A DNA stretch of 64,000 bases from a bacterium. GTDB lineage: Bacteria > Elusimicrobiota > Elusimicrobia > UBA1565 > UBA9628. Positions 4,298 to 51,411 of this stretch are shown one piece after another. Numbering within the stretch: position 1 is the stretch's first letter; every line of letters begins with the position of its first letter. The notes beneath the pieces were generated by a model. The model was not told where the DNA came from. It did no database searches and saw only the letters and a program-made list of their open reading frames with translations. Made by a program: the position numbers and the translations under genes. Where the stretch lies: NCBI GenBank assembly GCA_021782205.1, contig JAJXVH010000009.1, positions 3,432 to 67,431 of the forward strand. The letters are read 5' to 3'.

Positions 4298-5062
4298 ATG
4301 GAAAAGAAAGGCGTGATGGTCCCGATGCTGCTGGCGCTGTTCGCGGCGGTGATCTACATGGTGGTGCTGTCGAGCAAGGAAAAAGCGCTCAGCCATGACT
4401 ACGAAACGGCGCAAGTGCTTGTCGCCAACGCCGACATCCCGGAGCGAACGGTGCTCAAGGACACGATGGTCGAGCAGATGGCGATCCCGCGCAAGTTCAT
4501 GCAGCAGGACGCCTTCGAGTACCGCACGCCCTCGGATTTGAAGCAGATCGTCAACTTGGTCACGCGCACGCGCGTGCCCAAGGGCAATCAGATCACGCAG
4601 TCCTCGCTCGTCGCACTTTCTCCGGAGTCGGGCCTGAGCGTCAAGATCCCGCCCGGCTACCGCGGCGCGATGCTGCCCATCGATTCCGACATGAAGCCTC
4701 TGATCAAGCCGGGCGACCGCGTCGACGTGCTGGTCACCTTCGAGGCGGTGATGAAGGACACCGGCCAGAAAGAAAAGGTCACCGCGACCATCCTGCAGAA
4801 CGTGCTGGTCATCGCCGTGGGCACGAACCTGGGCCAGGGCATGAGCGCGTCGCAGTTCAAGTCGGCGGCGGCGGCGGAGGACAAGACCGCGTCGTTCGCC
4901 GAGCACGCCAGCATCAGCCTGGCGCTGAACCCGACCGAGGCCCAATACCTGGCGCTCGCCATCAAGCAGAGCGGCGGCGAGGTCACGGTCATCCTGCGCG
5001 GCCTTGGGGACATGGAGATGCATCCGATGGAGATGGCCAGCTTCCGCAAGCTGTTCAAGTGA
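4298..5062 (+). CDS. cpaB: Flp pilus assembly protein CpaB/RcpC (TM anchor, SAF domain, beta-clip)
   Basis: N-terminal TM helix. SAF-like segment VLVANADIPERTVLKDTMVEQMAIPRKF...VPKGNQITQSSLV, then IPPGYRGAMLPID...IKPGDRVDVLVTFE. Confidence 0.75.
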   Translation: MEKKGVMVPMLLALFAAVIYMVVLSSKEKALSHDYETAQVLVANADIPERTVLKDTMVEQMAIPRKFMQQDAFEYRTPSDLKQIVNLVTRTRVPKGNQITQSSLVALSPESGLSVKIPPGYRGAMLPIDSDMKPLIKPGDRVDVLVTFEAVMKDTGQKEKVTATILQNVLVIAVGTNLGQGMSASQFKSAAAAEDKTASFAEHASISLALNPTEAQYLALAIKQSGGEVTVILRGLGDMEMHPMEMASFRKLFK

Positions 5063-5084
5063 GAATGGGGAAAGGCGCGACAAC

Positions 5085-5837
5085 ATGAATCGACAACTGC
5101 GGGCGGCGGGGCTGGCGGCGGCGGCGGCGGCGGGACTGGCGGCGGTCGCCGCGGCCCAGCCTGACGACTCGCTGATCGCCGTGTCCGCCGACGTCGTCGA
5201 GATCTCGGGGTCCTATTCGCAGAATTTGGGGTTTACTTGGACGCCGCTGCAGACGGGCGTCAACTTCGGCGAGAAGTCGATTCCCGGCATCATCCGCCTG
5301 GGAGACTTCGCGCGCACGACGGCTCTCCAAACGTCGCTGCAAATGCTGGAGACCGAGGGCAAGGCGCAGTTGCTGTCCAATCCCAAGGTCATTGTGCAGG
5401 CGCAATCGCAGGCTAACTTCGTGGTCGGCGGCGAACAGCCGTATCCCGCGGCCAACGGCAACGGTACGGTCACGACGGACTTCAAGAAGTTCGGCGTGAT
5501 CCTCAACGTCGTGCCGGTGATTAACCCCAACAAGAAGGACACCATCCGCGCCGAGCTCCAATTGGAAGTCTCGAACATGAACTTCTCGCAGACGGTGCAG
5601 GTCGGCAACACCACCGTGCCCTCGGTGGTCACGCGCCAGATCCAGACCGCCGTCGAGGTCAAAAGCGGAGACACCTTGGTCATCGGCGGCCTCAAGTCCA
5701 GCACGAAGAACGTCTCAACGACGAAGGTCCCGTATCTGGGCAGCATCCCGATCCTCGGGTGGCTGTTCACCACGAAGAGCGTGACGGAGTCGGAGGAGTC
5801 CCTGTTCCTGTTCATCACGATGGAGATCGTCAAGTAG
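5085..5837 (+). CDS. cpaC: Secretin (CpaC/RcpA family), unusually short at 250 aa
   Basis: Signal peptide MNRQLRAAGLAAAAAAGLAAVAAAQPDD. The secretin core follows directly and ends in the canonical VPYLGSIPILGWLFTTKSVTESEESLFLFITMEIVK. Confidence 0.75.
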   Translation: MNRQLRAAGLAAAAAAGLAAVAAAQPDDSLIAVSADVVEISGSYSQNLGFTWTPLQTGVNFGEKSIPGIIRLGDFARTTALQTSLQMLETEGKAQLLSNPKVIVQAQSQANFVVGGEQPYPAANGNGTVTTDFKKFGVILNVVPVINPNKKDTIRAELQLEVSNMNFSQTVQVGNTTVPSVVTRQIQTAVEVKSGDTLVIGGLKSSTKNVSTTKVPYLGSIPILGWLFTTKSVTESEESLFLFITMEIVK

Positions 5838-5841
5838 CGGC

Positions 5842-8160
5842 ATGCCCGAGCCCACGACCATGAGCGGTCCCTCGACGGCGACGCCGACGTCCTTGCGCGA
5901 CCCAGGCCGGGTCATCGTGTTCACCGGCCCCAAGGAGGGCGTGGGCAAGACGACCGCGTGCCTGAACCTGGCGCTGGCGTGGGCGGGCAGCCAGAACCGC
6001 AAGGTCGTGATCGTGCACATGGACCCGCTGTGCCGCAACGACCTGAACTTCGTGCTGGGCAACCTCAACCCGCCGTCGTTGGCGAGCATGATCCAGCTGG
6101 TCGGCGACAGCCCGACCGGAGGCCTGGGCCGCCTGCTCAAGGGACGCATCCCGTTCTCGCAGTGGGGCGTCGGGCTCCTGCCGCTGGCGTCGTCGCGCAC
6201 GGAATTCCAGAAGCTGTCGCCGAACGTGGTCGTCAAAGTGCTGGGCTCGCTGGCCGAGAGCTACGACCTATTCATCGACGTCGATCCTTTTTTTCCGATG
6301 CAGGTTTTCTCCTTCGACCTGGCCGATCTGATCTACTGGGTGTGCATGCCCCAGCGCTCGCATTTCGAGGCCACGTATTCCCTGTTCAACGAGATCAAGG
6401 CCCTGCACTTTCCGCTCGACAAGTTCGAGATCGTGGTCAACCAGGCCAACCTGCCCGGCGCTCTGGCGCCCAAGGAGGTGGCACGCTTCTTCGACGCGAT
6501 GCAGAAGAAGGTTCTGGCCTACATGCCCTGGGAGGACCTGATCCCGGAGTTCGCCAACACGCAGAAGATCCTCGTCGTCGAGCACATGCAGAGCGACTGG
6601 GTGAAATCCCTGCGCGTTCTGCTGGGCCGCACCATGGAGCAGCCCGCCACGGTCAAGCACTGGGACACGTTCGTGGGTGCCGAGGAGTTCGGCGCGTCGG
6701 CCGACATGCTGTGGCGGCCGTCTTCCGGCGCCGGCATGTCGGAGGCCAAGCCCGCGCCGACGGCGGCGGCCATTTCCGACATTCCCGATTTCTGGGACGA
6801 GTTGAAGGCCAAGATGCACAAGTTCGTGGTCGCCGGCATGGAGACCGAGCACATCCGCATCAGCGACGACCCGAAGATGAACGACGAGAACCGCACGAAG
6901 GTCGGCCTGATCATCGAGAACCTCCTTCAGCGCGAGCAGGGCCTCTCCTTGACGCGCGCCCAGCGCGAGATGTTCGTCACCGAGCTCATCGACGAGATCC
7001 TGGGCCGCGGTCCGCTGGAGGCCCTGCTGCGCGACCCGGCCATCAACGAAATCATGGTCAACGCGTTCGACAAAATTTACGTCGAGAAGCACGGCCAGCT
7101 GGTGCTTCTGCCCATGCGCTTTCGCAACGACGAGCAGGTCGTGCAGGTCATCAAGCGCATCGTCGCGCCCATCGGCCGGCGCATCGACGAGTCGGTGCCG
7201 CTGGTCGACGCGCGCCTCAAGGACGGCTCGCGCGTCAACGCGATCATAGCGCCCCTCGCCGTCTCCGGCCCCACTTTGACGATCCGCCGCTTCTCGGCCA
7301 AGCCGTTCACCTCCGACCAGCTCATCAAGTTCGGCTCCACGACGCCCCAGCTCATCGAATTTTTGCGCGCGTCGGTGATCACGAAGAAAAACCTTCTGAT
7401 CTCCGGCGGCACCGGCACCGGCAAGACGACCTTCCTCAACATGCTCTCGAACTACATCCCCGACGGCGAGCGCATCATCACCGTCGAGGACACCGCCGAG
7501 CTGCGCCTGCTCGCCGAGCACTGGATCCGCCTGGAAAGCCGCCCGCCCAACATCGAAGGCAAGGGCGAGATCACGATCCGCGACCTGATCAAGAACTGCC
7601 TGCGCATGCGTCCCGACCGCATCATCGTCGGCGAGTGCCGCGGCGGCGAGGCGCTGGACATGCTCCAGGCCATGAACACCGGCCACGAGGGCTCGCTGGC
7701 GACGCTGCACGCCAACACGCCGTCGGACGCGATCTCGCGCCTGTCGGCGATGTGCCTGATGGCGGGCACCGACCTGCCCATGAACGTGCTCATCGAGATG
7801 ATCTCAAGCGCGGTCAACATCTTCGTGCAGATCACGCGCTTTCCGGACGGCAAGCGTCGCACCACCTACATCACGGAGTGCGTGGGCCGCGACGGCATCA
7901 AGATCCTCACGCGCGAGATTTTCCGCTTTTATCAGACGCACGTCGACGAGCAGGGCAAGAGCTACGGCTACTTCACCGCGTGCGACTACGTGCCGCGCTT
8001 TTACGACGAGTTCAAGCTCAAGGGCCTGGAGATTCCCAAGGAATTCTTCATGAGCGAGCGCACGAAGAAGAAGAACGGCCTGCCCAACGCGATCGACGAC
8101 CTGCTCAAGCAGGGCATCCCTTGCCCGGAGAACGTCGAAACGCAGGGAGCGGTAGCGTGA
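5842..8160 (+). CDS. cpaF: Fusion of CpaE/TadZ-like MinD/ParA ATPase (N-terminal) with CpaF/TadA secretion ATPase (C-terminal)
   Basis: N-terminal deviant Walker A VIVFTGPKEGVGKTTACLNLALAW. C-terminal part has GGTGTGKTTFLN, RIITVEDTAEL, RPDRIIVGECRGGEALDMLQAMNTGHEGSLATLHAN. Confidence 0.85.
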   Translation: MPEPTTMSGPSTATPTSLRDPGRVIVFTGPKEGVGKTTACLNLALAWAGSQNRKVVIVHMDPLCRNDLNFVLGNLNPPSLASMIQLVGDSPTGGLGRLLKGRIPFSQWGVGLLPLASSRTEFQKLSPNVVVKVLGSLAESYDLFIDVDPFFPMQVFSFDLADLIYWVCMPQRSHFEATYSLFNEIKALHFPLDKFEIVVNQANLPGALAPKEVARFFDAMQKKVLAYMPWEDLIPEFANTQKILVVEHMQSDWVKSLRVLLGRTMEQPATVKHWDTFVGAEEFGASADMLWRPSSGAGMSEAKPAPTAAAISDIPDFWDELKAKMHKFVVAGMETEHIRISDDPKMNDENRTKVGLIIENLLQREQGLSLTRAQREMFVTELIDEILGRGPLEALLRDPAINEIMVNAFDKIYVEKHGQLVLLPMRFRNDEQVVQVIKRIVAPIGRRIDESVPLVDARLKDGSRVNAIIAPLAVSGPTLTIRRFSAKPFTSDQLIKFGSTTPQLIEFLRASVITKKNLLISGGTGTGKTTFLNMLSNYIPDGERIITVEDTAELRLLAEHWIRLESRPPNIEGKGEITIRDLIKNCLRMRPDRIIVGECRGGEALDMLQAMNTGHEGSLATLHANTPSDAISRLSAMCLMAGTDLPMNVLIEMISSAVNIFVQITRFPDGKRRTTYITECVGRDGIKILTREIFRFYQTHVDEQGKSYGYFTACDYVPRFYDEFKLKGLEIPKEFFMSERTKKKNGLPNAIDDLLKQGIPCPENVETQGAVA

Positions 8161-9695
8161 GACTCGCGGCGGCGCTCGGCGTCCTGCTGGCGGTTGGCGC
8201 CGCGCCCGCCGCGGCCCAGCAGCTTTTCAGCCGCGCCGACATCGAGTTCATCGTGGGCAAGCGCGACGCCAACGGCGCGGTGGTTCAGGAAGGTGCGGAG
8301 AGCCGCATCCAGATGGTCTACCACTATTTCAAACGCGACCGCGACCAGGGCGTCCCCGTCCCAGCTTGGATCAACGCCAAGCTCGGGGCGATGCTGAGCC
8401 ATCCGGTGTGGCAGGACCCTGACGACGGCCTGCTCAACGAGGCCCAGCTGTGGCAGTCGCCGGACTCGGTGCTCTATGAATTTTTCGAACTGGTGCGCCG
8501 CAGCTTCCCGCCCGCCGACGGCGGCAAGCTGGTCTCGCCCGGCGCGCTCGTGCGCGAGTACGAGGACAACCGCGTCAAGTTCAACATGGCCTACGACCGC
8601 CTGCTGCGCGCCCACCTGCGCGACTCGCTCAACGGCCGGGCGCGCTCGGAGATCGCGACGTACGGCCTGATCAACAATCAGCTCGACGGCGTGATGGACG
8701 GCCTGATCAACGGCAACACCCAGCGCTACAAGGACGCGGTGATCGGCATCGCCGCGCTGTGTAATTCCTCCTACGACATCCTGCAGGTCAATCCGCGCGG
8801 CTACGCGCAGGCTCCCAAGGATCAATCGAGCCTGGAGAACGTCGCGTTGTTTTTCGCGATGCTCGGCGTTCTGGTCGCGGGCCTGATGGGCTTGTCGATC
8901 GGCGTGGAGAACGACGAGAAGATCGTCGGCTTGGCGGAGCGATACAAGACGAAGGCCAAGGAGTGGGCGCACGAGTACGAGCGCCAATTCATCGTCATCA
9001 AGGTGCACTATCTCGTCGGCGCGCCGATAGCCGCGGGCTTGATCATCGGCCTGCTGACCTTCGACGTCTACGGCTTCCTGATCTTCTTCGGCATGGGCGT
9101 CTACGCGGGGCTGATCCTGCCGGGCTGGCTTTTAGGCATCATCCGCCAGCGGCGCGGCGCGCGCTGCGAGGCCCAGCTCATGGACACGATGGTGCTGATG
9201 TCCAACGGCCTGAAGTCGGGCATCGACCTGATCGGCTGCATCGGCATGGCTACCAAGGACATGCAGCCGCCCATTTCCGAGGAGTTCGGGCTGTGCCTGA
9301 AGAACTACCACCTGGGCATGAGCATCGACAAGGCTCTTGAAGGCATCGAGGAGCGCGTGCAGAGCCGCCTGCTGTCCTACATGATCAAGGCCGTCGTCAT
9401 CCAGCGCTCGGTCGGCGGCAACTTGACCAAAATCTTCGACCGCATCGTCGAGAATATCCGCGAGGAGTCGAAGCTGGTGGAGAAGACCGCCGCGATGACC
9501 GCCCAGCAGCGCATCCAGGCCATCGTCGTCGGCGTGATGCCGTGGATCATGCTGCTGATCATGTTCGCCTTCCAGCCCAAGCCCATGGCCGCGTTCTATT
9601 TCACGCCGATGGGCTTCATGACTTTGCTGTTCTGCACCATCTGGATTTCGATCGGCATGAAGGTCGTCAATAAGCTGGGAGACATCAGCGTCTGA
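8157..9695 (+). CDS. tadB: TadB-like T2SS-F-domain inner-membrane platform protein with an N-terminal exported extension of about 280 aa
   Basis: GTG 8157 overlaps the upstream stop. Signal-like VRLAAALGVLLAVGAAPAAAQQ. The T2SSF domain runs MVLMSNGLKSGIDLIGCIGMATKD...IKAVVIQRSVGGNLTKIFDRI...QQRIQAIVVGVMPWIMLLIMF. The track ORF 5958.. is an out-of-frame extension through cpaE/F. Confidence 0.7.
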   Translation: MRLAAALGVLLAVGAAPAAAQQLFSRADIEFIVGKRDANGAVVQEGAESRIQMVYHYFKRDRDQGVPVPAWINAKLGAMLSHPVWQDPDDGLLNEAQLWQSPDSVLYEFFELVRRSFPPADGGKLVSPGALVREYEDNRVKFNMAYDRLLRAHLRDSLNGRARSEIATYGLINNQLDGVMDGLINGNTQRYKDAVIGIAALCNSSYDILQVNPRGYAQAPKDQSSLENVALFFAMLGVLVAGLMGLSIGVENDEKIVGLAERYKTKAKEWAHEYERQFIVIKVHYLVGAPIAAGLIIGLLTFDVYGFLIFFGMGVYAGLILPGWLLGIIRQRRGARCEAQLMDTMVLMSNGLKSGIDLIGCIGMATKDMQPPISEEFGLCLKNYHLGMSIDKALEGIEERVQSRLLSYMIKAVVIQRSVGGNLTKIFDRIVENIREESKLVEKTAAMTAQQRIQAIVVGVMPWIMLLIMFAFQPKPMAAFYFTPMGFMTLLFCTIWISIGMKVVNKLGDISV

Positions 9696-9696
9696 C

Positions 9697-10605
9697 ATGG
9701 GCGGCATCGATCCCCTGACTCACTATTTTTTGCTCGGGCTGGCGTTCTTCGGCTCGGTGGCGGCCTACGTCACGGTCAGCCGCATGTTCGCGCCGCCGCC
9801 GGAGGACGACAAGAACGACTTGTCCAAGCTGGCCAACCGCGAGATGGGCACCAGTTCGGCGTTCTCCGGGCTCAACCCCAACGGGGGCTTGGTCGAGCGT
9901 CTGGACCTCTACCTGCTGCGCACGTTCCACCTGGACGTGAAGCTGGAGGAGCTGCACATGCTGTTGGGCCGGCCGGCCAAGCCCAGCGCGCTGGACATCC
10001 TGCACCTGAAGGAGTTCTTCGCGCTGTTGTTCGGCGGAATCGCGGCGTTCGTCACCGGCTATTGGCCGCTGCTGGGCTTCGGCGCGATCGGCTTCCTGGT
10101 GCCGGACTCTCTGATGAACGCGCGCATCCGCGCGCGTCAGGCCGACATCATGCGCAACTTCCCGACCACGGTCGACTTGATGGCGCTGACCATCGAGGCC
10201 GGCCTCGACTACATGTCGGCCATCGAGCGCATCTTGAAGAACGTGCGGACGGGACAGCGCACGGAGCTGGAAAAAGAGCTGGAGAAGATGATCAACGAGG
10301 TCCAGCTCGGCTATTCGCGCCGCGACGCGCTGACCCGTCTGGCGCTGCGCACGGGCATCTCCGAAATCCGGTCCTTCGTGGGTCTGATCATCCAGTCCGA
10401 CGAGCTGGGCACGAGCCTGGTCGAACTGCTGCGCAACTACGCGGCCGATATGCGCTTTAGGCGCCTCAATCGCGCGGAGAAGCTGGCCGCGCAGGCCTCG
10501 ACGAAGATGCTGATCCCTCTGTTCATCTTCATCTTCCCGACCGTGTTCATCCTGATGCTGGCGCCGATGATGAAGAGCCTGATCCAGGGAGGCTTGGGCT
10601 TCTGA
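9697..10605 (+). CDS. tadC: TadC-like T2SS-F-domain inner-membrane platform protein
   Basis: MRNFPTTVDLMALTIEAGLDYMSAIERI...IIQSDELGTSLVELLRNYAADMRFRRLNRAEKLAAQASTKMLIPLFIFIFPTVFILMLAPMM. Confidence 0.75.
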   Translation: MGGIDPLTHYFLLGLAFFGSVAAYVTVSRMFAPPPEDDKNDLSKLANREMGTSSAFSGLNPNGGLVERLDLYLLRTFHLDVKLEELHMLLGRPAKPSALDILHLKEFFALLFGGIAAFVTGYWPLLGFGAIGFLVPDSLMNARIRARQADIMRNFPTTVDLMALTIEAGLDYMSAIERILKNVRTGQRTELEKELEKMINEVQLGYSRRDALTRLALRTGISEIRSFVGLIIQSDELGTSLVELLRNYAADMRFRRLNRAEKLAAQASTKMLIPLFIFIFPTVFILMLAPMMKSLIQGGLGF

Positions 10606-11966
10606 TGAACGCGCGCGCCCTCGCCGTGCTGCTGGCGCTGGCCTCCGCGGTTCCTTTGCGGGCGCAAGACGACGCGCCGATGGTCAAGGACACCGAAGGC
10701 CTGTTCCTGGACATGTCGAAGGTGAACTTGGGCACGATCAGCTCCGAAGACGACAAGAAGAAATACATCTACACCATCCAGCTGGAGAAGTCGCGCCTGA
10801 CGCGGCAGGCGCTGAAGATCGTCTACGAGAACGCCTTCGACCTCTACCGCGAGGGCCAGTTCGAGAACGCCAACGAGCTGACGCAGAAAATACTGGCCAT
10901 CGATCCGACCTATGAAGACGCGCGGATCCTGAACCGCGCCACGCTCGATCTCAAGGGCTCGACCACGCCGGCGGCCTCCCGGCACCGCTTGTTGTCGGAC
11001 CGTTTCGAGGAAGGCATGTCGCTGTATCGGCAGGGGCGTCTGGTCGAGGCGGCCGACCGTTGGGACGAGGTGGTCAAGCTTTCGCCGCTGAACTTGAAGG
11101 CGCGCTACTGGCTCAAGCGCGCGCACAAGGAACTGGCCGTCGAGCACTTCCGCCGCGGGCAGAAGGCCTACGCGCAGCACCGCCTGCGCGACACGCTCGA
11201 TCAATGGTATGCGGCGCTGGTGCTGGACCCGCACTATCCCCGCCTGGCGGCGTCCATCGCGAAGGTGGAAAGCGAGGAGCGCGAGCAGGAGGCCAACGAG
11301 AAGCTGCAGACGGCGCTGAACCTCTACGGCCAGGGCCTGGTGCTAGAGGCGCTGAAGACGCTCGACGAGGTGCTGGCGATCGGCCCTGGTAACGCGAAGG
11401 CGCAGAAGCTTCAATCGGAGATCCGCGCGGAGGTCGCCAACCAGCACGTGATGGAAGGCCGCCGGCTCTACGAGTCCCGCCAATATGAGGCGGCGATCGC
11501 CGAATGGAAAACGGCCACCGATTACGGCTACGACTCCAAGGCCGCGGATCAATTGGTGGCGCGCGCCAAGGAGCAGGAGCGGCGCGAGGAGGCCGCGCGC
11601 AAGCGCGCCGCCGAGGCCGCGAAGGTGCGCGAGGAAGACGCCAAGAAGAAAGCCGACGAAGAGGCGGCGGCGGCTGAGGCCAAGAAGAAGGCCGACGCCG
11701 ACGCCAAGGCCAAGGCGGACGCCGAAGCCCAGACGCAAAGTCAGAACGGCGCGCCGGCGGCCGCGCCGGCCGCTCCCGCCGGCGTCAGCGACTCGGCCAA
11801 ACAGCAGTCCCAGCAGGCCTACTTGGCGGGCATGGTTTATTTCCAGCAGGGCAACTACGAGAAGGCGCGCGACCAGTTCATGCTCGCCAAGCAGCTTGAC
11901 CCCGGAAACCCCGACGCCGCCGCGGGGCTGGACCGCATCGAAAAGCTCTACGGCGGGGGCCAATAG
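10605..11966 (+). CDS. Exported TPR-repeat protein (TadD-like position) with a Lys/Ala/Glu-rich tract
   Basis: Signal peptide MNARALAVLLALASAVPLRAQDD. Several TPR-like A..Y..G.Y..A...W..AL.LDP units. Low-complexity EERREEAARKRAAEAAKVREEDAKKKADEEAAAAEAKKKADADAKAKADAEAQ. Confidence 0.6.
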   Translation: MNARALAVLLALASAVPLRAQDDAPMVKDTEGLFLDMSKVNLGTISSEDDKKKYIYTIQLEKSRLTRQALKIVYENAFDLYREGQFENANELTQKILAIDPTYEDARILNRATLDLKGSTTPAASRHRLLSDRFEEGMSLYRQGRLVEAADRWDEVVKLSPLNLKARYWLKRAHKELAVEHFRRGQKAYAQHRLRDTLDQWYAALVLDPHYPRLAASIAKVESEEREQEANEKLQTALNLYGQGLVLEALKTLDEVLAIGPGNAKAQKLQSEIRAEVANQHVMEGRRLYESRQYEAAIAEWKTATDYGYDSKAADQLVARAKEQERREEAARKRAAEAAKVREEDAKKKADEEAAAAEAKKKADADAKAKADAEAQTQSQNGAPAAAPAAPAGVSDSAKQQSQQAYLAGMVYFQQGNYEKARDQFMLAKQLDPGNPDAAAGLDRIEKLYGGGQ

Positions 11967-21011: not shown

Positions 21012-21039
21012 TTGATTTTCCGCGGGACGCGGCTATAAT
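21012..21039 (+). promoter_or_regulatory. Sigma70 promoter: TTGATT, N16, TATAAT; ATG 6 nt downstream (leaderless)
   Basis: Consensus -10 at 21034-21039. ATG 21046 follows with no room for a Shine-Dalgarno sequence. Confidence 0.55.
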
Positions 21040-21045
21040 CCGGTT

Positions 21046-23994
21046 ATGACGCGCCCGTCGACTGTCGCCTTTCTGGCGGTGTTTTTTTTCGTCACCCCGG
21101 CGAACGCGGAAGACCAGTTGACGACCGTTCTGGCGGCGGTCCCGGCGGACAATTGCGGTTCGGCGGCGGGCGCGGCTCGCCTGTCGTGCGCGCAGCGCAA
21201 GGCGCAGGCGGCGGCGGAGAGCCTGGAGCTCTTCGCGACGCGCGGCGAATCCCTCCGCGACCGCGCGGCGGCGGCGGACGGCATCTCCCCGGAACTGCGG
21301 CCATTTTTTAAGGATCGCGCATCGTCTCTCAACGCGCTGTACCGGACTTTGGCGGTGCTGGACTATACGGCGGCTTTGCGCGACGGCGGCGACGCGTGCC
21401 GGGCGCGCGCTCGCCGCGGGGCGCTGCTGAGCGCGCCGGACGGGCTGTTCACCGACCCGAAGACGGGAAACGCCTCGGCATGGATCGAGCGCCTCGTCGG
21501 TCCGGCCGCGTTGAAAAAAACGTCCGAGGCGGCGTTGGATGAAGCGGGCGCGTCCGTGCCTTCGCCCCGAGACGCGGCGGGCTACGCGCGCCTGCGCGCG
21601 CGTGCGCGGCGCTTGAGCGAGGAACTGCTGAGCGCGGGCGAATCGGCGGGCCGGCGTTGCGGGCGGGCGAAGGTCTACGAGGCCCTGGCGGCGGCCGACG
21701 CGGAGCAGGGCGGCGCGGTGCTCGCGTCTCGGGACTTGTCTCCAGCGCGCCGAACCGGCCGGTCCGTACTTCTGCTGGCGCATCCGGGCGACGGTCGCAT
21801 CGAGGCATTGGGCGCTGCGACGGCGGTGGAGACGACGTCGGGAACGTTCTTGGTGACGGACGCGCGGCTGGTGGTCGACGCGCAGGGGCGTCCGCGGCCG
21901 GGCCTGGAGGTCGCGGCGCGAGACGGCGCGGGGCTGGGACGCTTCACGTCCATCAAGTTTACGCGGGTCGACACGGCGTCGGGGCTGGCGGAAGGTCCAG
22001 TGCCGGCGGGCGTGAGCGGTCTTCGTCTTGCCTCCCGCGCGCCAGCGGAAGGCGCGCTGATGAGCGCGACGGCGCAATCGGCGGCGGCGGGATATTGGGG
22101 CCGGACGACGGGCTTGGTGACGCGGTCGTCCGGGGACTGGTTCGAAACGGACGCGGCGGCCGACGACGCGATGTCGGGCGGAGCGGTGACGGACGCGGAC
22201 GGCGCGTTGGCCGGTCTGCTGGTGCTGCGGCGCGCGGCGGACGGACGGCCGTGGCCCGCCGCGGTGAGCGGCCCGGCGCTGGCGCGGTGGCTTGCGGGCG
22301 GCGAGGTCGGGGCGTTCGCGTCGTCGGGGCGCGGCGAGGGAACGGCGTCGCTGGTGGAGACGGGGCTTGCGGAGGGCCAGTCGGTGCAGGACGCGGACTG
22401 CAACGGCGAGACGACGATGGTGATGGGCCAGGCGATTCACGCGGAGTGCGCGGCCGACTGCACGGGCTGCGGCGCGCCGGCGCCGGCGCTCAGGCCGGCG
22501 ACGCCGCAAAGCAGCGCGCCGAGCGCTCCCGCGGGGCCGGACTGGGCGCAGATCTACGGGGCGCAGATGGGTCGGATGATCGGCCAGTATTTCGGGAACG
22601 TGCTGACACAGGCCTTGTTCGGCGGCGGTCCGGCCGGGCCGGCCTACGCGGCGCCCGTCGCGCCGTCCGCTCCGCCCAAGCCGAAAAAGCCGCAGGACGA
22701 ACTCAAGATCACGGGATTGAGGCTGACCGTCAGTCCGAGCGCGGCGAAGCTGGGTGACAGCGTGGAAGTGACGGCGCAGTTGTTGTTCAGCGATGAGGAC
22801 TATCCAGACAAGGCGAACGTGGACGTGGACCTGAGCGCGCCGGAAGGGACGTATTTCATCGACCGCATGGCAGGCCAGGGCCTCGACGCGGCGGAGGAAG
22901 GCGACCGAAACGTCACGCTCCAGACGGACGCGAGCGGGCGCGCGCGGGCGCGACTGCGGATCGAGAAAATGGACGCCGCTCAACCCCGGGTGGCCGACGA
23001 CAGCGAAAACGACGACGCCGGCAACGCCGATGAGACGAACGCCTCTTCGCCGTTGCATCTGCCGTCGAGCGTGGCAAGCGCTGGCCTGGTGATCCTGGCG
23101 ACGGCCCAAGCTCCGAACCGGCGCTTTCAGGCGCGCGCGGTGATTTGCTCCGTCGGCGCGTCCGGTTGCGGCGTCGATCGATCAGTCGCGGACATGCAAC
23201 TGACGGTCTCGCCGTCCGGTCCTCTGCGCCGCGATCAGAGCGTCGTCTTGAGCGCGACGGTCAAAATGTCGGACGGCGGCGGCGCGCCGGGCGTGAAAGT
23301 CGCGTTTCGAGGCCGCGACGCCGGGGACGTGCGGTTTGCGACGGGCGACGAGGCGACGGCGATCACGGACGAGAAGGGCGTGGCGCGGGTGACGGGCCGG
23401 TTGTGGCGGGCCATCCCGGCGGGGAAGACGGAGGAGGAAGTTAAAGCGGAGGTCAAGGACGCGCCCGAAGGCGGCGCTCAGACCGCCGGGGTCTCGGCGG
23501 CGGCCGTGGTCCTGATCGCTACCGAGGAATCGGACGATTGCCCGATCAAACCGGGCGAGGACCCGCTACGCCGGTTCGTGGATAAGACGGGGCTGGCACC
23601 GGGCTACCTGGAGAAGCACGAGGGGCCGGACCTTGGACACACGATCGAAAGACACGTGGCCAAGTCGCTGGCATATTTAACACATCGCGTGGTTGAAGAG
23701 AAATACGAAGAAGCGAGCACGTTCAATGATCTGCCGACGGCCGAAAATATTATTCGTAGCATAGCCCAAGCGAACGGCCCGGAGATTGTCCTATGGTTTA
23801 ATTCGCCCAATTCACGTGCAAAATCTCAAGATTTTGAAGATGAGTCCAGCAAGAGTGCGGATTCCCCCATTGGAATTCTGATTTCAGCAACCAATCCGGA
23901 CCAACCGCAACAGTGTTATAAAGCACGCATCGTCCTAAGGCGCAAGGGCCGATGCGATATCTTCATCTTGACGGCGTATCCGAAGAGGCAATGA
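21046..23994 (+). CDS. Large secreted polymorphic-toxin-like protein: signal peptide, Ala/Arg-rich region, two Big_1-like Ig repeats, C-terminal RNase A-like (CdiA-CT type) toxin module
   Basis: Signal peptide MTRPSTVAFLAVFFFVTPANAED. Ig-like LTVSPSAAKLGDSVEVTAQLLFSD and LTVSPSGPLRRDQSVVLSATVKMSDGGGAPGVKVAFRG. C-terminus GHTIERHVAKSLAYLTHRV...ASTFNDLPTAENIIRSIAQANGPEIVLW...ARIVLRRKGRCDIFILTAYP. Composition drops sharply from about 23600. Confidence 0.7.
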   Translation: MTRPSTVAFLAVFFFVTPANAEDQLTTVLAAVPADNCGSAAGAARLSCAQRKAQAAAESLELFATRGESLRDRAAAADGISPELRPFFKDRASSLNALYRTLAVLDYTAALRDGGDACRARARRGALLSAPDGLFTDPKTGNASAWIERLVGPAALKKTSEAALDEAGASVPSPRDAAGYARLRARARRLSEELLSAGESAGRRCGRAKVYEALAAADAEQGGAVLASRDLSPARRTGRSVLLLAHPGDGRIEALGAATAVETTSGTFLVTDARLVVDAQGRPRPGLEVAARDGAGLGRFTSIKFTRVDTASGLAEGPVPAGVSGLRLASRAPAEGALMSATAQSAAAGYWGRTTGLVTRSSGDWFETDAAADDAMSGGAVTDADGALAGLLVLRRAADGRPWPAAVSGPALARWLAGGEVGAFASSGRGEGTASLVETGLAEGQSVQDADCNGETTMVMGQAIHAECAADCTGCGAPAPALRPATPQSSAPSAPAGPDWAQIYGAQMGRMIGQYFGNVLTQALFGGGPAGPAYAAPVAPSAPPKPKKPQDELKITGLRLTVSPSAAKLGDSVEVTAQLLFSDEDYPDKANVDVDLSAPEGTYFIDRMAGQGLDAAEEGDRNVTLQTDASGRARARLRIEKMDAAQPRVADDSENDDAGNADETNASSPLHLPSSVASAGLVILATAQAPNRRFQARAVICSVGASGCGVDRSVADMQLTVSPSGPLRRDQSVVLSATVKMSDGGGAPGVKVAFRGRDAGDVRFATGDEATAITDEKGVARVTGRLWRAIPAGKTEEEVKAEVKDAPEGGAQTAGVSAAAVVLIATEESDDCPIKPGEDPLRRFVDKTGLAPGYLEKHEGPDLGHTIERHVAKSLAYLTHRVVEEKYEEASTFNDLPTAENIIRSIAQANGPEIVLWFNSPNSRAKSQDFEDESSKSADSPIGILISATNPDQPQQCYKARIVLRRKGRCDIFILTAYPKRQ

Positions 23995-24365
23995 CGATGC
24001 CCTCTTTCCTCAATAAATATAATAATTTTTCGGGTATTTCATTCGAGTTTCATTATCGCGAGGGGATTGAAAATCCTCTTGACGCGCCAGCGCGTTCTGA
24101 CCGCCAAATAGCGTTGGACCTGCTCTACAGAAGCGGAAGCTCGCCGTCGTTGCTAGTCATTATAACGCGGTGGTTGCGCGATTTGATCCGCGAGGCGCAT
24201 CATATCCGAGCGGACATCCAGCAGAACTGGCAGGAACTCAAGCATGAGGTTAATCGTCCGTTCAACACCGCCGAGGAAGCCAGCGCGTGGCTGGATGAGA
24301 TCATCGAGGTTTGGGAGACGGAATTGAAGCGCATCGAGGGCGCGTCCCGAAGACAAGAGCCATGA
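23991..24365 (+). CDS. Candidate cognate immunity protein (124 aa, no recognisable family)
   Basis: ATGA overlap with the toxin stop and ATGA overlap with the next gene. It shares the AT-richer composition of the toxin tip. Small, acidic, helical-looking. Confidence 0.5.
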   Translation: MTMPSFLNKYNNFSGISFEFHYREGIENPLDAPARSDRQIALDLLYRSGSSPSLLVIITRWLRDLIREAHHIRADIQQNWQELKHEVNRPFNTAEEASAWLDEIIEVWETELKRIEGASRRQEP

Positions 24366-25591
24366 TTGAAATGTCCCCGGTCGGCAAACGGAACGTCTCG
24401 ACGCTGCGTTCGCGGCTTTCGCGCGCCGGCCAGATCGTCATCCCCGCGATGCTGATCTTCCCGACGCTGTTCCTGTTCGTCTATCTCATCTACGAGACGG
24501 CGAAGCTCTCGCGCGAGAAGATCCGCCACCAGTTCGCCATGGACGCCGCCGCGTTCGTGGAGATGGCCAACTACTCGGACTTCCTGAACCGTTCGGCCTA
24601 CGTCAACGGGGCGTTTCCCATGCGCATCTTCGAGGAGGGCTACGCGGGCTTTCCCGCCGACTGCACGGGCAAGGTCGCCAACTGCCAGCAGAAGTCGTAC
24701 GCGTCGATCCTGTTCGACAACGGGGCGTTTCCGCACCTCGGCCGCCAGTACATCGATGGACATAAGGCGGAGGGAACCGCAGATTTTATCGGTAAGACGT
24801 CCTGGACGATCGAATACGGCTATAACAGCGACGGTAGTCCCACGTCGATCGCGCCGCAGTCGAACCGCACGACGATGAACGAGAATCCGCCGCAGAGCGT
24901 GGAGCCGTTCGTGCTGTTCTCGCTCAACGACGCCAATCACTTCTGGCACTCCTACCAATTGGCGACCGAGATCTACAAGCTTTGGTATCAGGTCTACTCC
25001 CTTTTGGGCTCGGTCGAGGACGCGCAGTACCAGGTGCTCACGCGCCTGACCGGAGGCCCGCCGCCGCACAGCTTCCTGCAGAAGTCCTACTGGCTCAACA
25101 CGGGCGACAGTCCCAACGACGCCGCGCAGCTCGCGACGACGTTCGGCAATCAATTGGGCAACTTCAACGGCGCCGTCGGCGTGCTTTGCCAGCAGACGCT
25201 GTTGTATTGCGGCAACCAGCACCTGGGCGGCACCGGACTCCAGCCCTATCGCCCGGAGTGCGCCAACCCCGTGATTCAATTGCAGTCCTCGGCGGGCTGC
25301 GGCGGAGACATGAGCGGCGGCAGCGGCGGACTCTTTCAGTTGGTCTACGTCAAACAGCAGATGATCTCGAATCTCAACACGCCGCACGGCGGCGGCAACT
25401 ATCCCGGGCTGTCGCTGATGATGAACTGGACGTATCCGTCCAGCAATTACTTCAACGTCAATTGGGGCCAGGAGTTCGGCAGCGCCGGTCCGCAGTTGCA
25501 CACCACGATCTCCCTTTCGGGCGATCCGAAAAACGCCCCCGCGGTGTGGCCGGACCCCACGCCGCTTTTCCAGGTGAGGCAGTTCCCGTGA
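24362..25591 (+). CDS. TadG-like minor pilin / pilus-associated protein
   Basis: N-terminus RAGQIVIPAMLIFPTLFLFVYLIYETAKLSREKIRHQFAMDAAAFVEMA fits the TadG-like N-terminal pattern (G-Q, a TM helix, then ..LQ.AaDaAAla..). Confidence 0.6.
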   Translation: MIEMSPVGKRNVSTLRSRLSRAGQIVIPAMLIFPTLFLFVYLIYETAKLSREKIRHQFAMDAAAFVEMANYSDFLNRSAYVNGAFPMRIFEEGYAGFPADCTGKVANCQQKSYASILFDNGAFPHLGRQYIDGHKAEGTADFIGKTSWTIEYGYNSDGSPTSIAPQSNRTTMNENPPQSVEPFVLFSLNDANHFWHSYQLATEIYKLWYQVYSLLGSVEDAQYQVLTRLTGGPPPHSFLQKSYWLNTGDSPNDAAQLATTFGNQLGNFNGAVGVLCQQTLLYCGNQHLGGTGLQPYRPECANPVIQLQSSAGCGGDMSGGSGGLFQLVYVKQQMISNLNTPHGGGNYPGLSLMMNWTYPSSNYFNVNWGQEFGSAGPQLHTTISLSGDPKNAPAVWPDPTPLFQVRQFP

Positions 25592-30025: not shown

Positions 30026-30043
30026 ATATTGAGGAGAGAATTT

Positions 30044-31681
30044 ATGGACCCCAAAACCAGAGTCCCGGAGATCAAGCCAGACGTGAACCGGGAGAAAGAC
30101 CGCGAGCGCAAGAAAGGCGGGTTTCTGGTGCGCCTCTTCGGCGCCGGCGCGGCGGAGGGCGGCGCGGGCTTGAGCGGCGGCGTCGTCGACATTGGGGGTG
30201 CGGCGGTCGGCGGGGGATTGTTGGCCACGAAGGCGGGCCTCATCGCGCTGCTGGTTGCGGGTTCGACGGTCGCGGCGGGCATCGGCTTGGTCGGCTATCG
30301 CGCGTTCGGTCCGGGCTCCGACCAAAATTCTGAAAATAACTTGGCGTTGTTCGCCCCGCGTCCCAAGACGACGGCTGGTCCGACCGCGCCCGCGCCGGGC
30401 AGCCAGAACGGCACGTCGCCCTCTTTGGGCATGCTGACCCAGGCCAACAGCAGCGGTTCCGGCGACGGCTCCGCCGGCGCGTCCGGCGGCGTGCAGGACC
30501 AGGTCGCCGCGTCCGCGGCGTCGGCCTCGGCGGGGACGACCAGCTCCACCGACGGCGGCACGGCGATGAGCGGCTCCGGCGGCGGCGCGACGGGCCAGCC
30601 GATGGCGAACATCGCGAAGTTCGGCGCGCTGGGCGCGTCCACCGGCGGGAGCAGCGGCGGCGGCGCGGTTTCGTCCGCGGCCAGCCCCCAATCCCGCGGC
30701 GAGATGTCCGCCAACTCCGCCTCGAAAGGCAACCTCAGCGGCATGATGGGCAAGAGCGGCCCCGGCGCGCGCTCCAATTCCGCGATGGCGCGCAGTTTCA
30801 ACCATTCCAGCGGCGCCACGGGCCAGGCCTTCAGCGCGCTGGGCAACCAGCGCGGAGGTATGGCTCCCTCCAGTTACTCCGCGGGCCAGACCTACGACGG
30901 CTCGGCGGGCGTGGGCGGCTCCGCGGTCGGCCCGTCGGCGGGCGTGCCCACGGTCGCCGGCGCCAGCGAAAGCGGCGGCCAGGCCGCGGCCAAATCCACG
31001 CCCAACACCGCCAACCAGGGCAGCCAGATTCAGCCGCCGCCCACGCCTCCGGCCACGAATGTGACGCCTTGGCAGGGGGACATCAACGCGGCGGAGATGA
31101 TGATAGGCTTAGGAGTTCTGTTGTTGCTCGCCAAACACACGATCGCTGCTTCCCTTTTGGATAAAACGAATCCGGTTACTGCGGGTTATGCGAAGACGGC
31201 GATGCTTGTTATCGACGGTATCATCGCTGTGTTGGGGGTGGCGATCATCGCACTGGGTGCCAGAATCGGAGGGGGCCAATACGGGCAAATCCTTCAAGGG
31301 CGTCTTTTGGCCACGGCCGGAGTGGGACTTATGATTGCGGGCGTAGGATCTGGAATCAGCGACAACGGAATGGATACCTCGACATCTTCCTTTGACAGCA
31401 GTAGCAGTTGCGGCGTGAATGGTAGCTTTTCGGATTGGGCGAGCAAATTCAGCAACGCGACGACTATGTCTACTCTAGCTTCACCGTATATCATGTTGGG
31501 TGGGGGCCTGGCGCTTATTGGTTTGGCGGGGGCAGCACTTTCGCCCCAACAACAGTATCCCTCGACGGATTTTAACAACGGGATACCGCCGGGCCAAGGT
31601 ATGTTCTCGATGGGTCATATGCCTTCTCAGGACGGGGTCTTATCCGCGCTGAACGGTTCCAAGAAGACCGCGCTTGGTTAA
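30044..31681 (+). CDS. Gly/Ser/Ala-rich membrane protein, paralog P2 (basic N-terminus, TM, low-complexity region, multi-TM C-terminal module)
   Basis: GAGGAG RBS. REKDRERKKGGFLVRLFG; the C-terminal module MMIGLGVLLLLAK...AMLVIDGIIAVLGVAIIALGARIGG...LLATAGVGLMIAGVG sits in an AT-richer stretch. Confidence 0.6.
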   Translation: MDPKTRVPEIKPDVNREKDRERKKGGFLVRLFGAGAAEGGAGLSGGVVDIGGAAVGGGLLATKAGLIALLVAGSTVAAGIGLVGYRAFGPGSDQNSENNLALFAPRPKTTAGPTAPAPGSQNGTSPSLGMLTQANSSGSGDGSAGASGGVQDQVAASAASASAGTTSSTDGGTAMSGSGGGATGQPMANIAKFGALGASTGGSSGGGAVSSAASPQSRGEMSANSASKGNLSGMMGKSGPGARSNSAMARSFNHSSGATGQAFSALGNQRGGMAPSSYSAGQTYDGSAGVGGSAVGPSAGVPTVAGASESGGQAAAKSTPNTANQGSQIQPPPTPPATNVTPWQGDINAAEMMIGLGVLLLLAKHTIAASLLDKTNPVTAGYAKTAMLVIDGIIAVLGVAIIALGARIGGGQYGQILQGRLLATAGVGLMIAGVGSGISDNGMDTSTSSFDSSSSCGVNGSFSDWASKFSNATTMSTLASPYIMLGGGLALIGLAGAALSPQQQYPSTDFNNGIPPGQGMFSMGHMPSQDGVLSALNGSKKTALG

Positions 31682-31706
31682 AAAATAGTAATTGGGACGG
31701 CTTTTC

Positions 31707-31735
31707 TTGACAGCGGGAGAGTGTCGGGCTACACT
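31707..31735 (+). promoter_or_regulatory. Sigma70-like promoter: TTGACA, N17, TACACT
   Basis: -35 at 31707-31712 and -10 at 31730-31735. A leader of about 45 nt carries CAGGAG before ATG 31787. Confidence 0.55.
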
Positions 31736-31786
31736 CCGTTGTAGATTCAAAAATGATTTTGGAGTTCGAATTTCAGGAGCGACGCC

Positions 31787-49953: not shown

Positions 49954-50094
49954 CGCGAAGCGGCGCACTTGATTCCAGGATGGGGAGTGAACTGAGTAGG
50001 GTCAGGCGGCCGATTTCCCAATTCTACAGAATCCGTTTCTGGTTGCCGCCCCAGAATATTAACGGCGCACAATCGATTCTGCGAATGGTGTGAT

Positions 50095-50541
50095 ATGGGG
50101 GCTAAAATGGAAGTTCACGACTGGATTACAATCACCTCAGTAATAATAGCCGGCGCTGGTTGGTTCGTAAACGGTTGGCTGAGTCGCCGGCACGAGATTG
50201 CAAAGAGGCGCATGGATTTTCGTCTCAACGCCCTCTGTTCGTTTTTGCCCGTTCTGTTCGCGATCAAGGAAGATCGGACGCAGGATGATCGATTCGCAAG
50301 AGATATCGCTGCCTGTCGAACCAACTTTCAACTTTACTGTTTCGGAAATGAAGTGGAAGAATTTGAAAAACTCATCACGGCTATTGAGTCGAAGCAGCAT
50401 AAAAACTTTAAAGAGTTGCTATTGAAAGTCACGCATATGGTCAGAAACCAGGTTAGGAAGCAGCTCGGCCTGGATGAATTTATGCCAAAAAAGAGTCCAG
50501 GTGGGTCAAGTAGTTGCTCGCGATCAAGTTGCGGCTCCTGA
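50095..50541 (+). CDS. Hypothetical membrane-anchored protein in a visibly AT-richer segment
   Basis: N-terminal TM WITITSVIIAGAGWFVNGWL. Its codon usage is atypical for the window. No family recognised. Confidence 0.45.
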   Translation: MGAKMEVHDWITITSVIIAGAGWFVNGWLSRRHEIAKRRMDFRLNALCSFLPVLFAIKEDRTQDDRFARDIAACRTNFQLYCFGNEVEEFEKLITAIESKQHKNFKELLLKVTHMVRNQVRKQLGLDEFMPKKSPGGSSSCSRSSCGS

Positions 50542-50574
50542 GGCAGGCCGTGCCCCCTGAAACTTGGCCGTTGC

Positions 50575-50800
50575 GTGTTGCGACTGCTGCGCTGGATCGA
50601 TGTGCGGCGCTTCTGGGCGCTGGACGAGTCGGCGACCTTCCTGAACCACGGTTCGTTTGGCTCGTGCCCCATTCCAGTGCTCGAGGTGCAGTCCGAGCTG
50701 CGACGGAGGACGGAAGCCGAGCCGGTTCATTTTCTTGACGGCGAGCTCGAATATCTGCTCGACGCGGCGCGCGCGGCGCTGGGGAACTTCGTCGGCGCGC
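50575..50800 (+). pseudogene. N-terminal remnant of a class-V aminotransferase (isopenicillin-N-epimerase/cysteine-desulfurase-like)
   Basis: FWALDESATFLNHGSFGSCPIPVLEVQSELRRRTEAEPVHFLDGELEYLLDAARAALGNFVGA matches the family's N-terminus as I recall it. Sense is lost after about 50800, and neither the PLP-lysine region nor the rest of the fold follows. Confidence 0.55.
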
Positions 50801-50918: not shown

Positions 50919-51176
50919 TTATAGGTTCCTGTACGTTCCTTCGTTGCGTCGCAAGACGCGCAGAATCGTGACCAGTTCCTCGGCATCCTGAATCGCATAC
51001 AAGACGCGCCAATCACCCACGCGTATGCGATGAAGCGCGTCCTTCAGTTTCTTGACTCCCGGCGGACGAGGATTTGATGCCAGCGCGAGGACGTGCTTCT
51101 CGATCCTGAGAAGGTCCGCTCCCTCTATCCGGTCCAAATCGCGTCGGGCGGTTTTTGCGAGGTCGACGCTATACAC
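50919..51176 (-). CDS. RelE/ParE-family type II toxin
   Basis: MYSVDLAKTARRDLDRI...NPRPPGVKKLKDALHRIRVGDWRVLYAIQDAEELVTILRVLRRNEGY-type pattern. It overlaps the upstream antitoxin gene by 8 nt. Confidence 0.8.
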   Translation of the reverse strand: MYSVDLAKTARRDLDRIEGADLLRIEKHVLALASNPRPPGVKKLKDALHRIRVGDWRVLYAIQDAEELVTILRVLRRNEGTYRNL

Positions 51177-51405
51177 GGCTCTTCGCGCGCTTGGAGAAGT
51201 ATTCCCGAGCGGAAATCGTCTTGTCCTCGACCTTGGAGTGGGTCGTCCATGCCTCGCGTGCCGCGCGCAGATCGGAGAGGTCGTCTTTGTAGAGGCGCTC
51301 CGCTGCTTCGCGTAGAAGGTCGGCCATGGAACAGCGCCGCTCGATGGCGAGATGCTTCAAATTGGCGTGAAGATCTTGGGGTAAGAAAATCGTGGTTCTA
51401 ATCAT
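51169..51405 (-). CDS. Ribbon-helix-helix (CopG-like) antitoxin
   Basis: MIRTTIFLPQDLHANLKHLAIERRCSMADLLREAAERLY. Start set at ATG 51405, since the promoter lies inside the track's longer ORF. Confidence 0.7.
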   Translation of the reverse strand: MIRTTIFLPQDLHANLKHLAIERRCSMADLLREAAERLYKDDLSDLRAAREAWTTHSKVEDKTISAREYFSKRAKSRV

Positions 51406-51411
51406 TCTGTA

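Follow-up and report, generated by a model that had tools for sequence, protein, structure and literature searches.

The locus analysed here lies in a 64 kb window, the whole stretch of DNA that we examined, from an Elusimicrobiota metagenome-assembled genome (MAG). Two open reading frames (ORFs) were in focus: a gene for a 982-residue protein, predicted to be an exported polymorphic toxin with an RNase A-like C-terminal tip, and the small ORF directly downstream, a candidate for its immunity gene. A preliminary description, made by reading the sequence, had already presented the pair in these terms, and the large ORF is present with a C-terminus identical to the one quoted there. Identical copies of the toxin occur in three NCBI MAG assemblies and in several Logan assemblies.

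The tip was assigned by hmmscan (Pfam-A) to PF18431 (RNAse_A_bac), with E=9.8e-19 and a score of 68.7 bits against a curated cutoff of 27, and the match covered the complete profile (1-113/113), which confirms the domain recognized in the preliminary description. The same text had proposed a comparison with the structure of the Yersinia kristensenii CdiA-CT toxin (YkCdiA-CT; PDB 5E3E). The nuclease domain of that protein (5e3e_B) was indeed the one real relative among PDB sequences, with E=8.2e-6 in phmmer; the value fell to E=5.4e-11 when the query was a profile of four Elusimicrobial tips. The two domains are homologous over their full length. Mutagenesis revealed that His175, Arg186, Thr276 and Tyr278 are needed for YkCdiA-CT activity, and the primers used place the His in DRHVGK, the Arg in LLNRV, and the Thr and Tyr in IITGYP (Batot et al. 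2017, PMC5435912). In our HMMER alignments, these four residues correspond to H870 (ERHVAK), R881 (THRV), and T976 and Y978 (both in LTAYP) of the window protein, so that all four equivalents are kept. Across nine related Elusimicrobial tips, H870 and R881 are invariant, the T976 site is occupied by Thr or Ser, and the Y978 site by Tyr, Phe or Trp. In the RNase A-like family, Tyr278 varies to Phe and Thr276 was found to be completely conserved (PMC5435912); the Ser variants at the T976 site therefore depart from that report.

Two further residues are invariant in the nine RNase tips: C832 (23539-23541), at the junction between carrier and tip, and C970 (23953-23955), within R-C-D-I-F-I-L. The Elusimicrobial tips differ here from the Yersinia toxin, which has no cysteine, while vertebrate RNase A enzymes carry three or four disulfides (PMC5435912). 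In a protein exported by Sec, it is reasonable to suppose that the tip and junction cysteines could form a disulfide. In that case, the tip would be a bacterial RNase A-like domain with a disulfide, unlike the cysteine-free Yersinia toxin. The junction itself follows the pattern D-C-(A/P)-(L/I)-K-(P/Q)-(G/N)-E..L.R-F-(V/I)-D...H-E-G in the nine members and reads E-S-D-D-C-P-I-K-P-G-E in the window; D-C-x-x-K-P-G-E thus stands where CdiA has its VENN motif. As only about 32 residues separate the junction from the nuclease, the window toxin, unlike YkCdiA-CT, has no separate entry domain.

Next to the tip, the small ORF is present as the preliminary description had reported it. Its ATG at 23991 overlaps the toxin stop codon (TGA, 23992-23994) as ATGA and gives a protein of 124 residues, while the gene callers used for the public assemblies chose the alternative ATG at 23997 (122 residues). 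A second ATGA overlap joins the stop codon of the small ORF to the start of the gene that follows (ATG at 24362). The encoded protein is acidic (pI 5.4), carries neither a signal peptide nor a cysteine, and has no relative in Pfam or the PDB. A profile search against the PDB did return designed or TPR-like (tetratricopeptide-like) helical repeats at E=2.6e-6; this value is summed over weak stretches, and we read it as helical composition and rejected these proteins as homologs.

Homologs of the small ORF emerged from the comparison of loci. In three other Elusimicrobiota MAGs (L013, L018 and L019), the same RNase tip is directly followed by an ORF of 105-110 residues with 29-32% identity to that of the window, and the four share the motif K-Y-x-x-F-x-G near the N-terminus and N-R-x-F...A..W-L...W..E-L near the C-terminus. 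We built a hidden Markov model (HMM) from these four ORFs and used it to search the ORFs in all six frames of the window and of 17 loci with RNase A-like tips. It matched only ORFs located directly 3' of Elusimicrobial-type tips (the window, L013, L018, L019, L025 and L024); the twelve other RNase A-like toxins (L026-L037) are followed by no match. The coupling between toxin and small ORF is tight or overlapping in the window, L013, L018, L019 and L024. Comparative genomics usually recognizes a cognate immunity gene by conserved, exclusive and tightly coupled co-occurrence of this kind. Since homologs of the small ORF are found only directly after the same RNase tip type, we consider it a candidate cognate immunity gene, and its conservation beside this tip in five other loci supports the proposal made in the preliminary description.

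The orphan immunity genes that the same text had suggested looking for were found in part. Locus L024 carries, at 671-1378, two tandem immunity homologs after a single RNase A-like tip (73 and 65 bits with the HMM), and these are the kind of extra or orphan immunity gene expected in polymorphic toxin loci. Within the window there is no orphan tip or immunity gene and no second copy of the carrier, the tip or the immunity gene. Searches started from smaller pieces added no relative: a metagenome scan seeded on the immunity alignment gave 197 pattern matches, none of them a relative, and word-indexed homolog searches with the tip alone or the immunity protein alone returned the query itself or nothing.

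We then considered the rest of the toxin, the carrier. A search with the full-length protein revealed 11 other proteins, whose similarity extends over the first 34-69% of the query (about 45-69% in most cases); in the alignment of these 12 sequences, the N-terminal ~620 residues are common and the C-termini differ. To delimit the family, one genome per GTDB species was scanned, and all 14 loci found (14/14) lie in Elusimicrobia/Elusimicrobiota MAGs, in places with several loci per genome (four in JACPOW01, for example). In addition, the family profile was run with HMMER against 1.84 billion cluster representatives (clusters at 50% identity). The family comprises 72 clusters at E<=1e-30, and beyond those the matches are generic Trypsin_2 proteases. 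Organism names exist for the genome loci only; the members known as metagenome proteins carry none.

The tips on this carrier are diverse, and the comparison of orthologous loci for alternative C-termini, which the preliminary description had suggested, yielded at least seven recognized tip families. Among 47 members, Pfam recognized RNAse_A_bac in four, Ntox21 in three and Ntox16 in two (plus L021), and the carrier also bears colicin E3 ('Cytotoxic'), colicin E5, Ntox37 and EndoU_bacteria tips; most tips are not recognized by Pfam. Many tips of other types likewise begin right after an acidic residue and a Cys. Each complete locus except L014 has its own small ORF 3' of the tip, and where the tips differ, the small ORFs differ as well. 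When carriers were ranked by similarity over residues 21-470, the closest to the window was P0028 (51%), which has an Ntox16-like tip, followed by P0002 (50%), whose tip is of unknown type; the RNase-tipped P0050 came third, and the other RNase-tipped members came 17th or below 25th. Thus, tip type does not track carrier relatedness: the nearest carriers bear other tips, and the RNase-tipped ones are scattered.

The composition of the DNA changes over the same region. In 750-bp windows the mean GC content of the 64 kb is 0.662 (standard deviation 0.043), and the minimum, 0.509, falls in the window starting at 23631. The AT-richer stretch noticed in the preliminary description (23600-24350) has a GC content of 0.518 (z=-3.35), and the drop here is the strongest in the window. 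The AT-rich codons remarked on there are also strongly enriched: AAT, ATT, ATA, AGA, CTA and TTA are about 8-40 times more frequent in this region than in the reference set, or absent from the latter. GC content at third codon positions (GC3) is 0.85 in the first 838 codons, which encode the carrier, 0.57 in the tip and 0.63 in the small ORF, and lies between 0.87 and 0.92 in five neighbouring genes. Because GC3 falls from 0.85 to 0.57, the drop acts at synonymous sites.

A similar drop is present in 12 of the 13 complete family loci compared (window included). In these 12, the last 120 codons together with the next 360 bp have a GC content of 0.46-0.58 (tips 0.46-0.57) against 0.63-0.76 in the carrier; in L014, the one exception, the tip is truncated and the drop is small (0.64/0.60 versus 0.71). 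Members that share the RNase tip with the window show the drop too, so a same C-terminus with uniform composition was not what we found. The position of the break varies. In L013, L019 and L025, GC3 breaks at the junction or just before it. In the window it breaks 30-45 codons past C832, just after GHTIERHV and away from the domain border, and the junction and pre-toxin linker keep a host-like GC3 of 0.80-0.93. We infer from these profiles that the crossover in the window fell within the conserved start of the RNase-type tip, just after GHTIERHV. With a common N-terminal ~60-70%, differing tips and the drop in 12/13 loci, the swapped toxin/immunity cassette on a conserved carrier that the preliminary description had proposed is supported as a polymorphic toxin system with exchangeable tip and immunity cassettes. 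The features of the locus are collected in Table 1.

Table 1. Features of the toxin locus, in window coordinates. AF2, AlphaFold2; pLDDT, predicted local distance difference test.
Feature	Position	Strand	Basis
Sigma-70-like promoter match, TTGATT-16-TATAAT, 10/12	21012..21039	+	Consensus scan; pattern match only
Putative toxin gene, 982 aa, polymorphic-toxin carrier with RNase A-like tip	21046..23994	+	ORF listing
Sec-type signal peptide, aa 1-21 (MTRPSTVAFLAVFFFVTPANA then ED)	21046..21108	+	Read from the sequence
Alpha-helical N-terminal domain, aa ~23-235, motif LDALYRTLAV, invariant C118 and C205	21112..21750	+	Alignment; AF2
HtrA/DegS-like chymotrypsin-fold domain, triad incomplete, aa ~240-420	21763..22305	+	Trypsin_2; family profile; AF2
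Putative Ig-like beta domain 1, aa ~553-640	22702..22965	+	AF2 strands at pLDDT 50-63; alignable in the family
Putative Ig-like beta domain 2, aa ~717-795	23194..23430	+	Big_1 match below threshold (18.6 bits, cutoff 34.9; E=0.0021)
Junction and pre-toxin linker, D830-D831-C832 then PIKPGEDPLRRFVDKTGLAPGYLEKHEGPDL	23533..23634	+	Conserved in nine RNase-tipped members
RNase A-like toxin domain PF18431, aa 864-979, with H870, R881, T976 and Y978	23635..23982	+	Pfam; PDB 5e3e_B
Candidate cognate immunity gene, 124 aa (ATG 23991) or 122 aa (ATG 23997)	23991..24365	+	ATGA overlap; homologs
AT-rich tract, most of the RNase domain and the immunity gene	23650..24370		Lowest-GC stretch of the window

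The toxin leader has a positively charged n-region, an 11-residue hydrophobic core and an A-x-A site (A-N-A / E-D), without a lipobox, and no further hydrophobic or transmembrane segment was found in the protein (Kyte-Doolittle, 19-residue window, >1.4). A consensus scan for sigma-70 promoters returned two sites where 0.6 were expected, one of them just 5' of the toxin ATG. The protein contains 13 cysteines (C37, C48, C118, C205, C452, C468, C472, C475, C701, C708, C832, C957 and C970), and C118, C205, C468 and C472 are invariant in the 12-sequence carrier alignment. At E<=1, the Pfam matches of the protein were limited to RNAse_A_bac, Trypsin_2, Big_1 and Big_3_5. An AF2 model of the full protein, made with the 12 sequences, reached a mean pLDDT of 48.5 with the tip below 50, and only residues 240-420 were usable.

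The ~210-residue N-terminal domain has no Pfam match, and AF2 predicts helices there at low-to-medium confidence. The domain that follows is the only one of the carrier modelled at pLDDT 70-93. Its Trypsin_2 score is below threshold in the window protein (19.3 bits), yet Trypsin_2 matches 43 of the 47 family members, and a family profile of the domain matches DegS, DegP and HtrA structures at E=3e-10. Compared with HtrA/DegP-type proteases (Trypsin_2, MEROPS S1C), the fold is homologous and the His-Asp-Ser triad is not kept: in alignment with DegS, R274 occupies the position of the His and S312 that of the Asp, and S377 is kept at the Ser site. Of the 47 members, 45 lack the His, and only nine have a Ser at the Ser site. 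With the catalytic triad missing, we regard the domain as a degenerate fold and not as a releasing protease, and a role as a self-releasing protease was rejected on the same ground. The two most distant members, P0076 and P0082, share the helical N-terminal domain and keep the triad motifs T-N-x-H-V-V, D-L-A and G-N-S-G-G-P-L; with TNAHVV, DLA and GNSGGPL, they may stand for the ancestral state of the carrier, an active protease.

A Cys-containing linker and a Gly-rich amphipathic segment connect the HtrA-like domain to the beta domains. Domain 1 ends at the invariant T627, G631 and A633 and has no Pfam match above threshold. The two beta domains match each other weakly (E=0.007 over 27 residues), and one family member reaches Big_1 at E=7e-5. 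An Ig-like fold is plausible for these domains, and the carriers of the family hold one or two beta-rich domains that are probably Ig-like. The preliminary description had summarized the carrier as a signal peptide plus Big_1-like Ig repeats. The Sec-type leader stands, while a carrier made of Big_1 repeats was rejected, given the sub-threshold score and the weak internal repeat similarity; its core consists of the helical and HtrA-like domains.

Taken together, these observations lead us to propose, with a probability of about 0.8, that the two genes form the toxin-immunity module of a polymorphic toxin system in this Elusimicrobiota MAG. Our model takes the general steps (export, binding, import and kin protection) from Zhang et al. 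2012 (PMC3482391). The toxin would be exported by Sec and would then leave the cell by a further route. The carrier, with its helical domain, its HtrA-like fold without the catalytic His and Asp, and its Ig-like domains, would serve surface display or target-cell binding, and the C-terminal ~150 residues after the D-D-C junction would enter the cytoplasm of a competitor. There, the tip would cleave RNA without a metal, as proposed for YkCdiA-CT (PMC5435912), with H870 as the general base, R881 stabilizing the transition state, and T976/Y978 at the leaving-group or base-stacking position. The acidic, cytoplasmic 122-124-residue protein would cover the active site and so protect the producer and its kin. 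Over evolutionary time, tip-plus-immunity cassettes would be exchanged by recombination, here with a crossover just after GHTIERHV.

Several points weigh against this model. No secretion-system marker was found in the toxin protein (Pfam, E<=1), and the neighbourhoods of its homologs differ from one another. The immunity protein has no relatives outside six loci (the window and five other metagenomic loci) and, searched as a profile against the PDB, no sequence similarity to the Yersinia immunity protein CdiI-Ykris, which is an eight-helix globule (PMC5435912). AF2 gave a pLDDT of only 37.5 for the tip with a four-sequence alignment and below 50 in the full-length model; as both structure predictions failed for this domain, its fold is supported by sequence profiles only. 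Finally, the GC drop is mild in L018, and low GC could partly reflect a selective or mutational regime common to the family and not recent transfer.

Comparison with known systems clarifies what is familiar and what is new. RNase A-like tips with immunity genes are already known from CdiA, Rhs, type VII secretion system (T7SS) and other carriers, and by itself the tip adds one more ordinary member to this group. As in YkCdiA-CT/CdiI, the domain forms the very end of a large exported protein, with the immunity gene directly 3'. The resemblance to CdiA ends there. The window carrier has no two-partner secretion (TPS) domain, no filamentous haemagglutinin (FHA) repeats and no VENN motif (Pfam E<=1; sequence), and no CdiB was found among the neighbouring ORFs scanned. 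The label 'CdiA-CT type' in the preliminary description thus fits the name of the domain family and not the protein.

Closer in logic are the polymorphic toxins that depend on Sec and the type II secretion system (T2SS), such as MafB and those with inactive-transglutaminase modules. In the available portion of the survey by Zhang et al. 2012 (PMC3482391), these have a signal peptide as their only trafficking signal and, likewise, a family-specific N-terminal module, variable C-terminal nuclease tips, each with an immunity gene of its own, several paralogs in a genome and cassettes of low GC. The helical plus HtrA-like module is not among the modules or proteases of the survey in that portion, where neither 'trypsin' nor 'HtrA' is mentioned. 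A full-text literature search found no paper that describes the carrier family. By its sequence, therefore, we consider that the new part is the carrier, a Sec-exported family of about 70 clusters whose organism-named loci all lie in Elusimicrobiota MAGs. The logic of the system is the familiar one of polymorphic toxins, on a new delivery scaffold.

The other close parallel is provided by the Streptomyces umbrella (Umb) particles (Zhao et al. 2024, PMC11062931), which are likewise secreted by Sec and contain an inactive trypsin fold as a non-enzymatic module. In Umb, the cleft of this domain binds an N-terminal peptide of UmbB; the domain lies on a separate protein, UmbA, together with lectins, and UmbC carries the ALF repeats and the coiled-coil stalk (PMC11062931). 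The window HtrA-like domain stands instead in cis with the toxin, and no ALF repeats, lectins or partner genes were found. Nuclease colicins and S-type pyocins (colicin E3, colicin E5) are modular in the same way, with a C-terminal nuclease and a linked acidic immunity protein. Colicins differ in having no Sec leader, in being released by lysis proteins, and in T and R domains unrelated to the window carrier, and there is no lysis gene at the window locus.

These parallels bear on how the toxin would be delivered, the one step in which the best-surviving alternative departs from our model. The protein could be a soluble bacteriocin, of the colicin/pyocin or umbrella kind, and not a cell-bound contact-dependent toxin; we regard this as possible, though short of an even chance. 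Nothing holds the protein at the surface by itself, as it has no transmembrane anchor, lipobox, or autotransporter or TPS domain, and the family includes colicin E3 and E5 tips. In addition, the Umb inactive trypsin-like domains bind a peptide in their cleft within a secreted polymorphic toxin complex (PMC11062931). By analogy, the HtrA-like cleft might hold a peptide from a partner or receptor, with translocation driven by the helical domain, a variant that we hold equally tentatively. However, no lysis, release or partner genes are conserved beside family members, and neither the toxin nor the 47 family members contain ALF repeats or lectin domains.

On the side of our model, we tentatively picture an Elusimicrobiota-restricted delivery platform that works without a type V to type VII secretion system, in which an HtrA fold has been recruited in cis for binding or assembly and a C832-C970 disulfide tethers the tips. 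The scaffold would then be an independent parallel to the inactive trypsin-like domain of the Streptomyces umbrella toxins.

A different objection concerns the composition drop, which might arise from local constraint (amino-acid content, weak codon selection, or AT-rich mRNA at the coupled start) and not from cassette exchange. The drop occurs family-wide whatever the tip, as a common selective regime could produce, and in the window the break lies away from the domain border. Nevertheless, we find this explanation unlikely: the drop is seen at synonymous sites, the low GC stops at the next gene despite the translational coupling to it, tips do not follow the relatedness of their carriers, and L024 holds an additional immunity copy in tandem.

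Less probable still is that the protein is a secreted digestive or scavenging RNase, or another exoenzyme without an antagonistic role, with the downstream protein inhibiting mislocalized enzyme inside the cell. There is precedent for such a pair in the Bacillus RNase A-like lipoproteins with inhibitors, proposed as probable nucleotide scavengers (Batot et al., PMC5435912), and the plain Sec leader and the lack of recognized delivery machinery would suit it. But the same carrier bears colicin E3, colicin E5, EndoU, Ntox16, Ntox21 and Ntox37 tips, which act inside cells, and tips are swapped between close carriers, each with its own downstream small ORF. Tip diversification is a hallmark of antagonistic toxins and is absent from the Bacillus group (PMC5435912). 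Lastly, an intracellular toxin-antitoxin or abortive-infection anti-phage module, with the N-terminal part as a sensor and the low GC marking a mobile defence island, would account for a tightly coupled small-inhibitor/nuclease pair in an AT-rich island, in a window where another low-GC island holds a RelE/ParE-like pair (by eye), but is highly improbable given the Sec-type leader, the 13 Cys, the conserved carrier Cys positions, the toxin-first gene order, the polymorphic C-terminus with colicin-type tips and the absence of flanking mobility genes.

If the polymorphic-toxin reading holds, the locus would provide evidence, at the level of sequence, of protein-mediated antagonism in Elusimicrobiota, a phylum that is almost uncultivated. 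The degenerate trypsin fold would be a second, independent case of its kind in a secreted polymorphic toxin, with a role that can be tested by comparison. The carrier family is also a source of candidate new toxin and immunity families, and the small ORFs after alternative tips form a pool of candidate immunity families. Examples lie in L008 (9741-10241), L001 (10900-11151) and L016 (8314-8739). In P0011, a tip with a ParB-like D-G-N-H-R motif (by eye) is followed by a pentapeptide-repeat-like protein.

The genes around the toxin were also inspected. Upstream lie two-component regulators and a DUF2332 protein. Downstream, between 24362 and 26088, ORFs of 409 and 166 residues are linked in series to the immunity gene through ATGA or overlapping start codons, and the toxin-immunity pair therefore heads a translationally coupled gene string in this genome; an FtsH-like protease lies beyond them. 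The 409-residue ORF has no Pfam match, the 166-residue ORF has a weak full-length TadE match (E=0.013), and the N-termini of both look TadG/TadE-like. No mobility genes flank the cassette. Signatures of CdiB, Rhs, PAAR, VgrG, WXG100/LXG and MuF were absent from the toxin (Pfam E<=1) and from the neighbouring ORFs scanned (E<=1e-3 to 1e-4), and the latter, which are part of the window ORFs, gave no ShlB, POTRA or Bac_surface_Ag match either.

A Tad/Flp-pilus-type cluster occupies 4298-11963 of the window. It encodes RcpC/CpaB (4298-5059), a secretin (5004-5834), a TadZ/TadA-like ATPase (ParA-like plus T2SSE, 5842-8157), two T2SSF proteins (one up to 9692, the other at 9697-10602) and a TPR protein (10605-11963). 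A functional tie of the toxin to these genes was considered and rejected, since homologs in other genomes sit in unrelated neighbourhoods (RuvABC/QueA; a methyltransferase/SBP operon; microcompartment genes; PilZ/MiaA). At the start of the window, the ORF at 7-2307 has FlgD_ig and CHU_C (type IX secretion signal) matches, which is unexpected beside a Tad cluster.

Two further regions of the window have low GC. The second-lowest island (0.47-0.51) covers 50000-50600 and 50919-51429, right after a 2660-residue ORF (41971-49953) that has no Pfam match. It holds a 148-residue ORF (50095-50541) with an N-terminal hydrophobic segment and, on the minus strand and judged by eye, a RelE/ParE-type toxin-like ORF (50919-51176) with a ribbon-helix-helix-type antitoxin-like ORF (51169-51429). 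The third island (31100-31780, 0.49-0.57) corresponds to the Gly/Ala-rich hydrophobic C-terminus of a 550-residue ORF (30029-31681), again with no Pfam match. More generally, the region from 28781 to 49953 is a run of large ORFs (414-2660 residues) without a Pfam match at E<=1e-3, which encode uncharacterized proteins.

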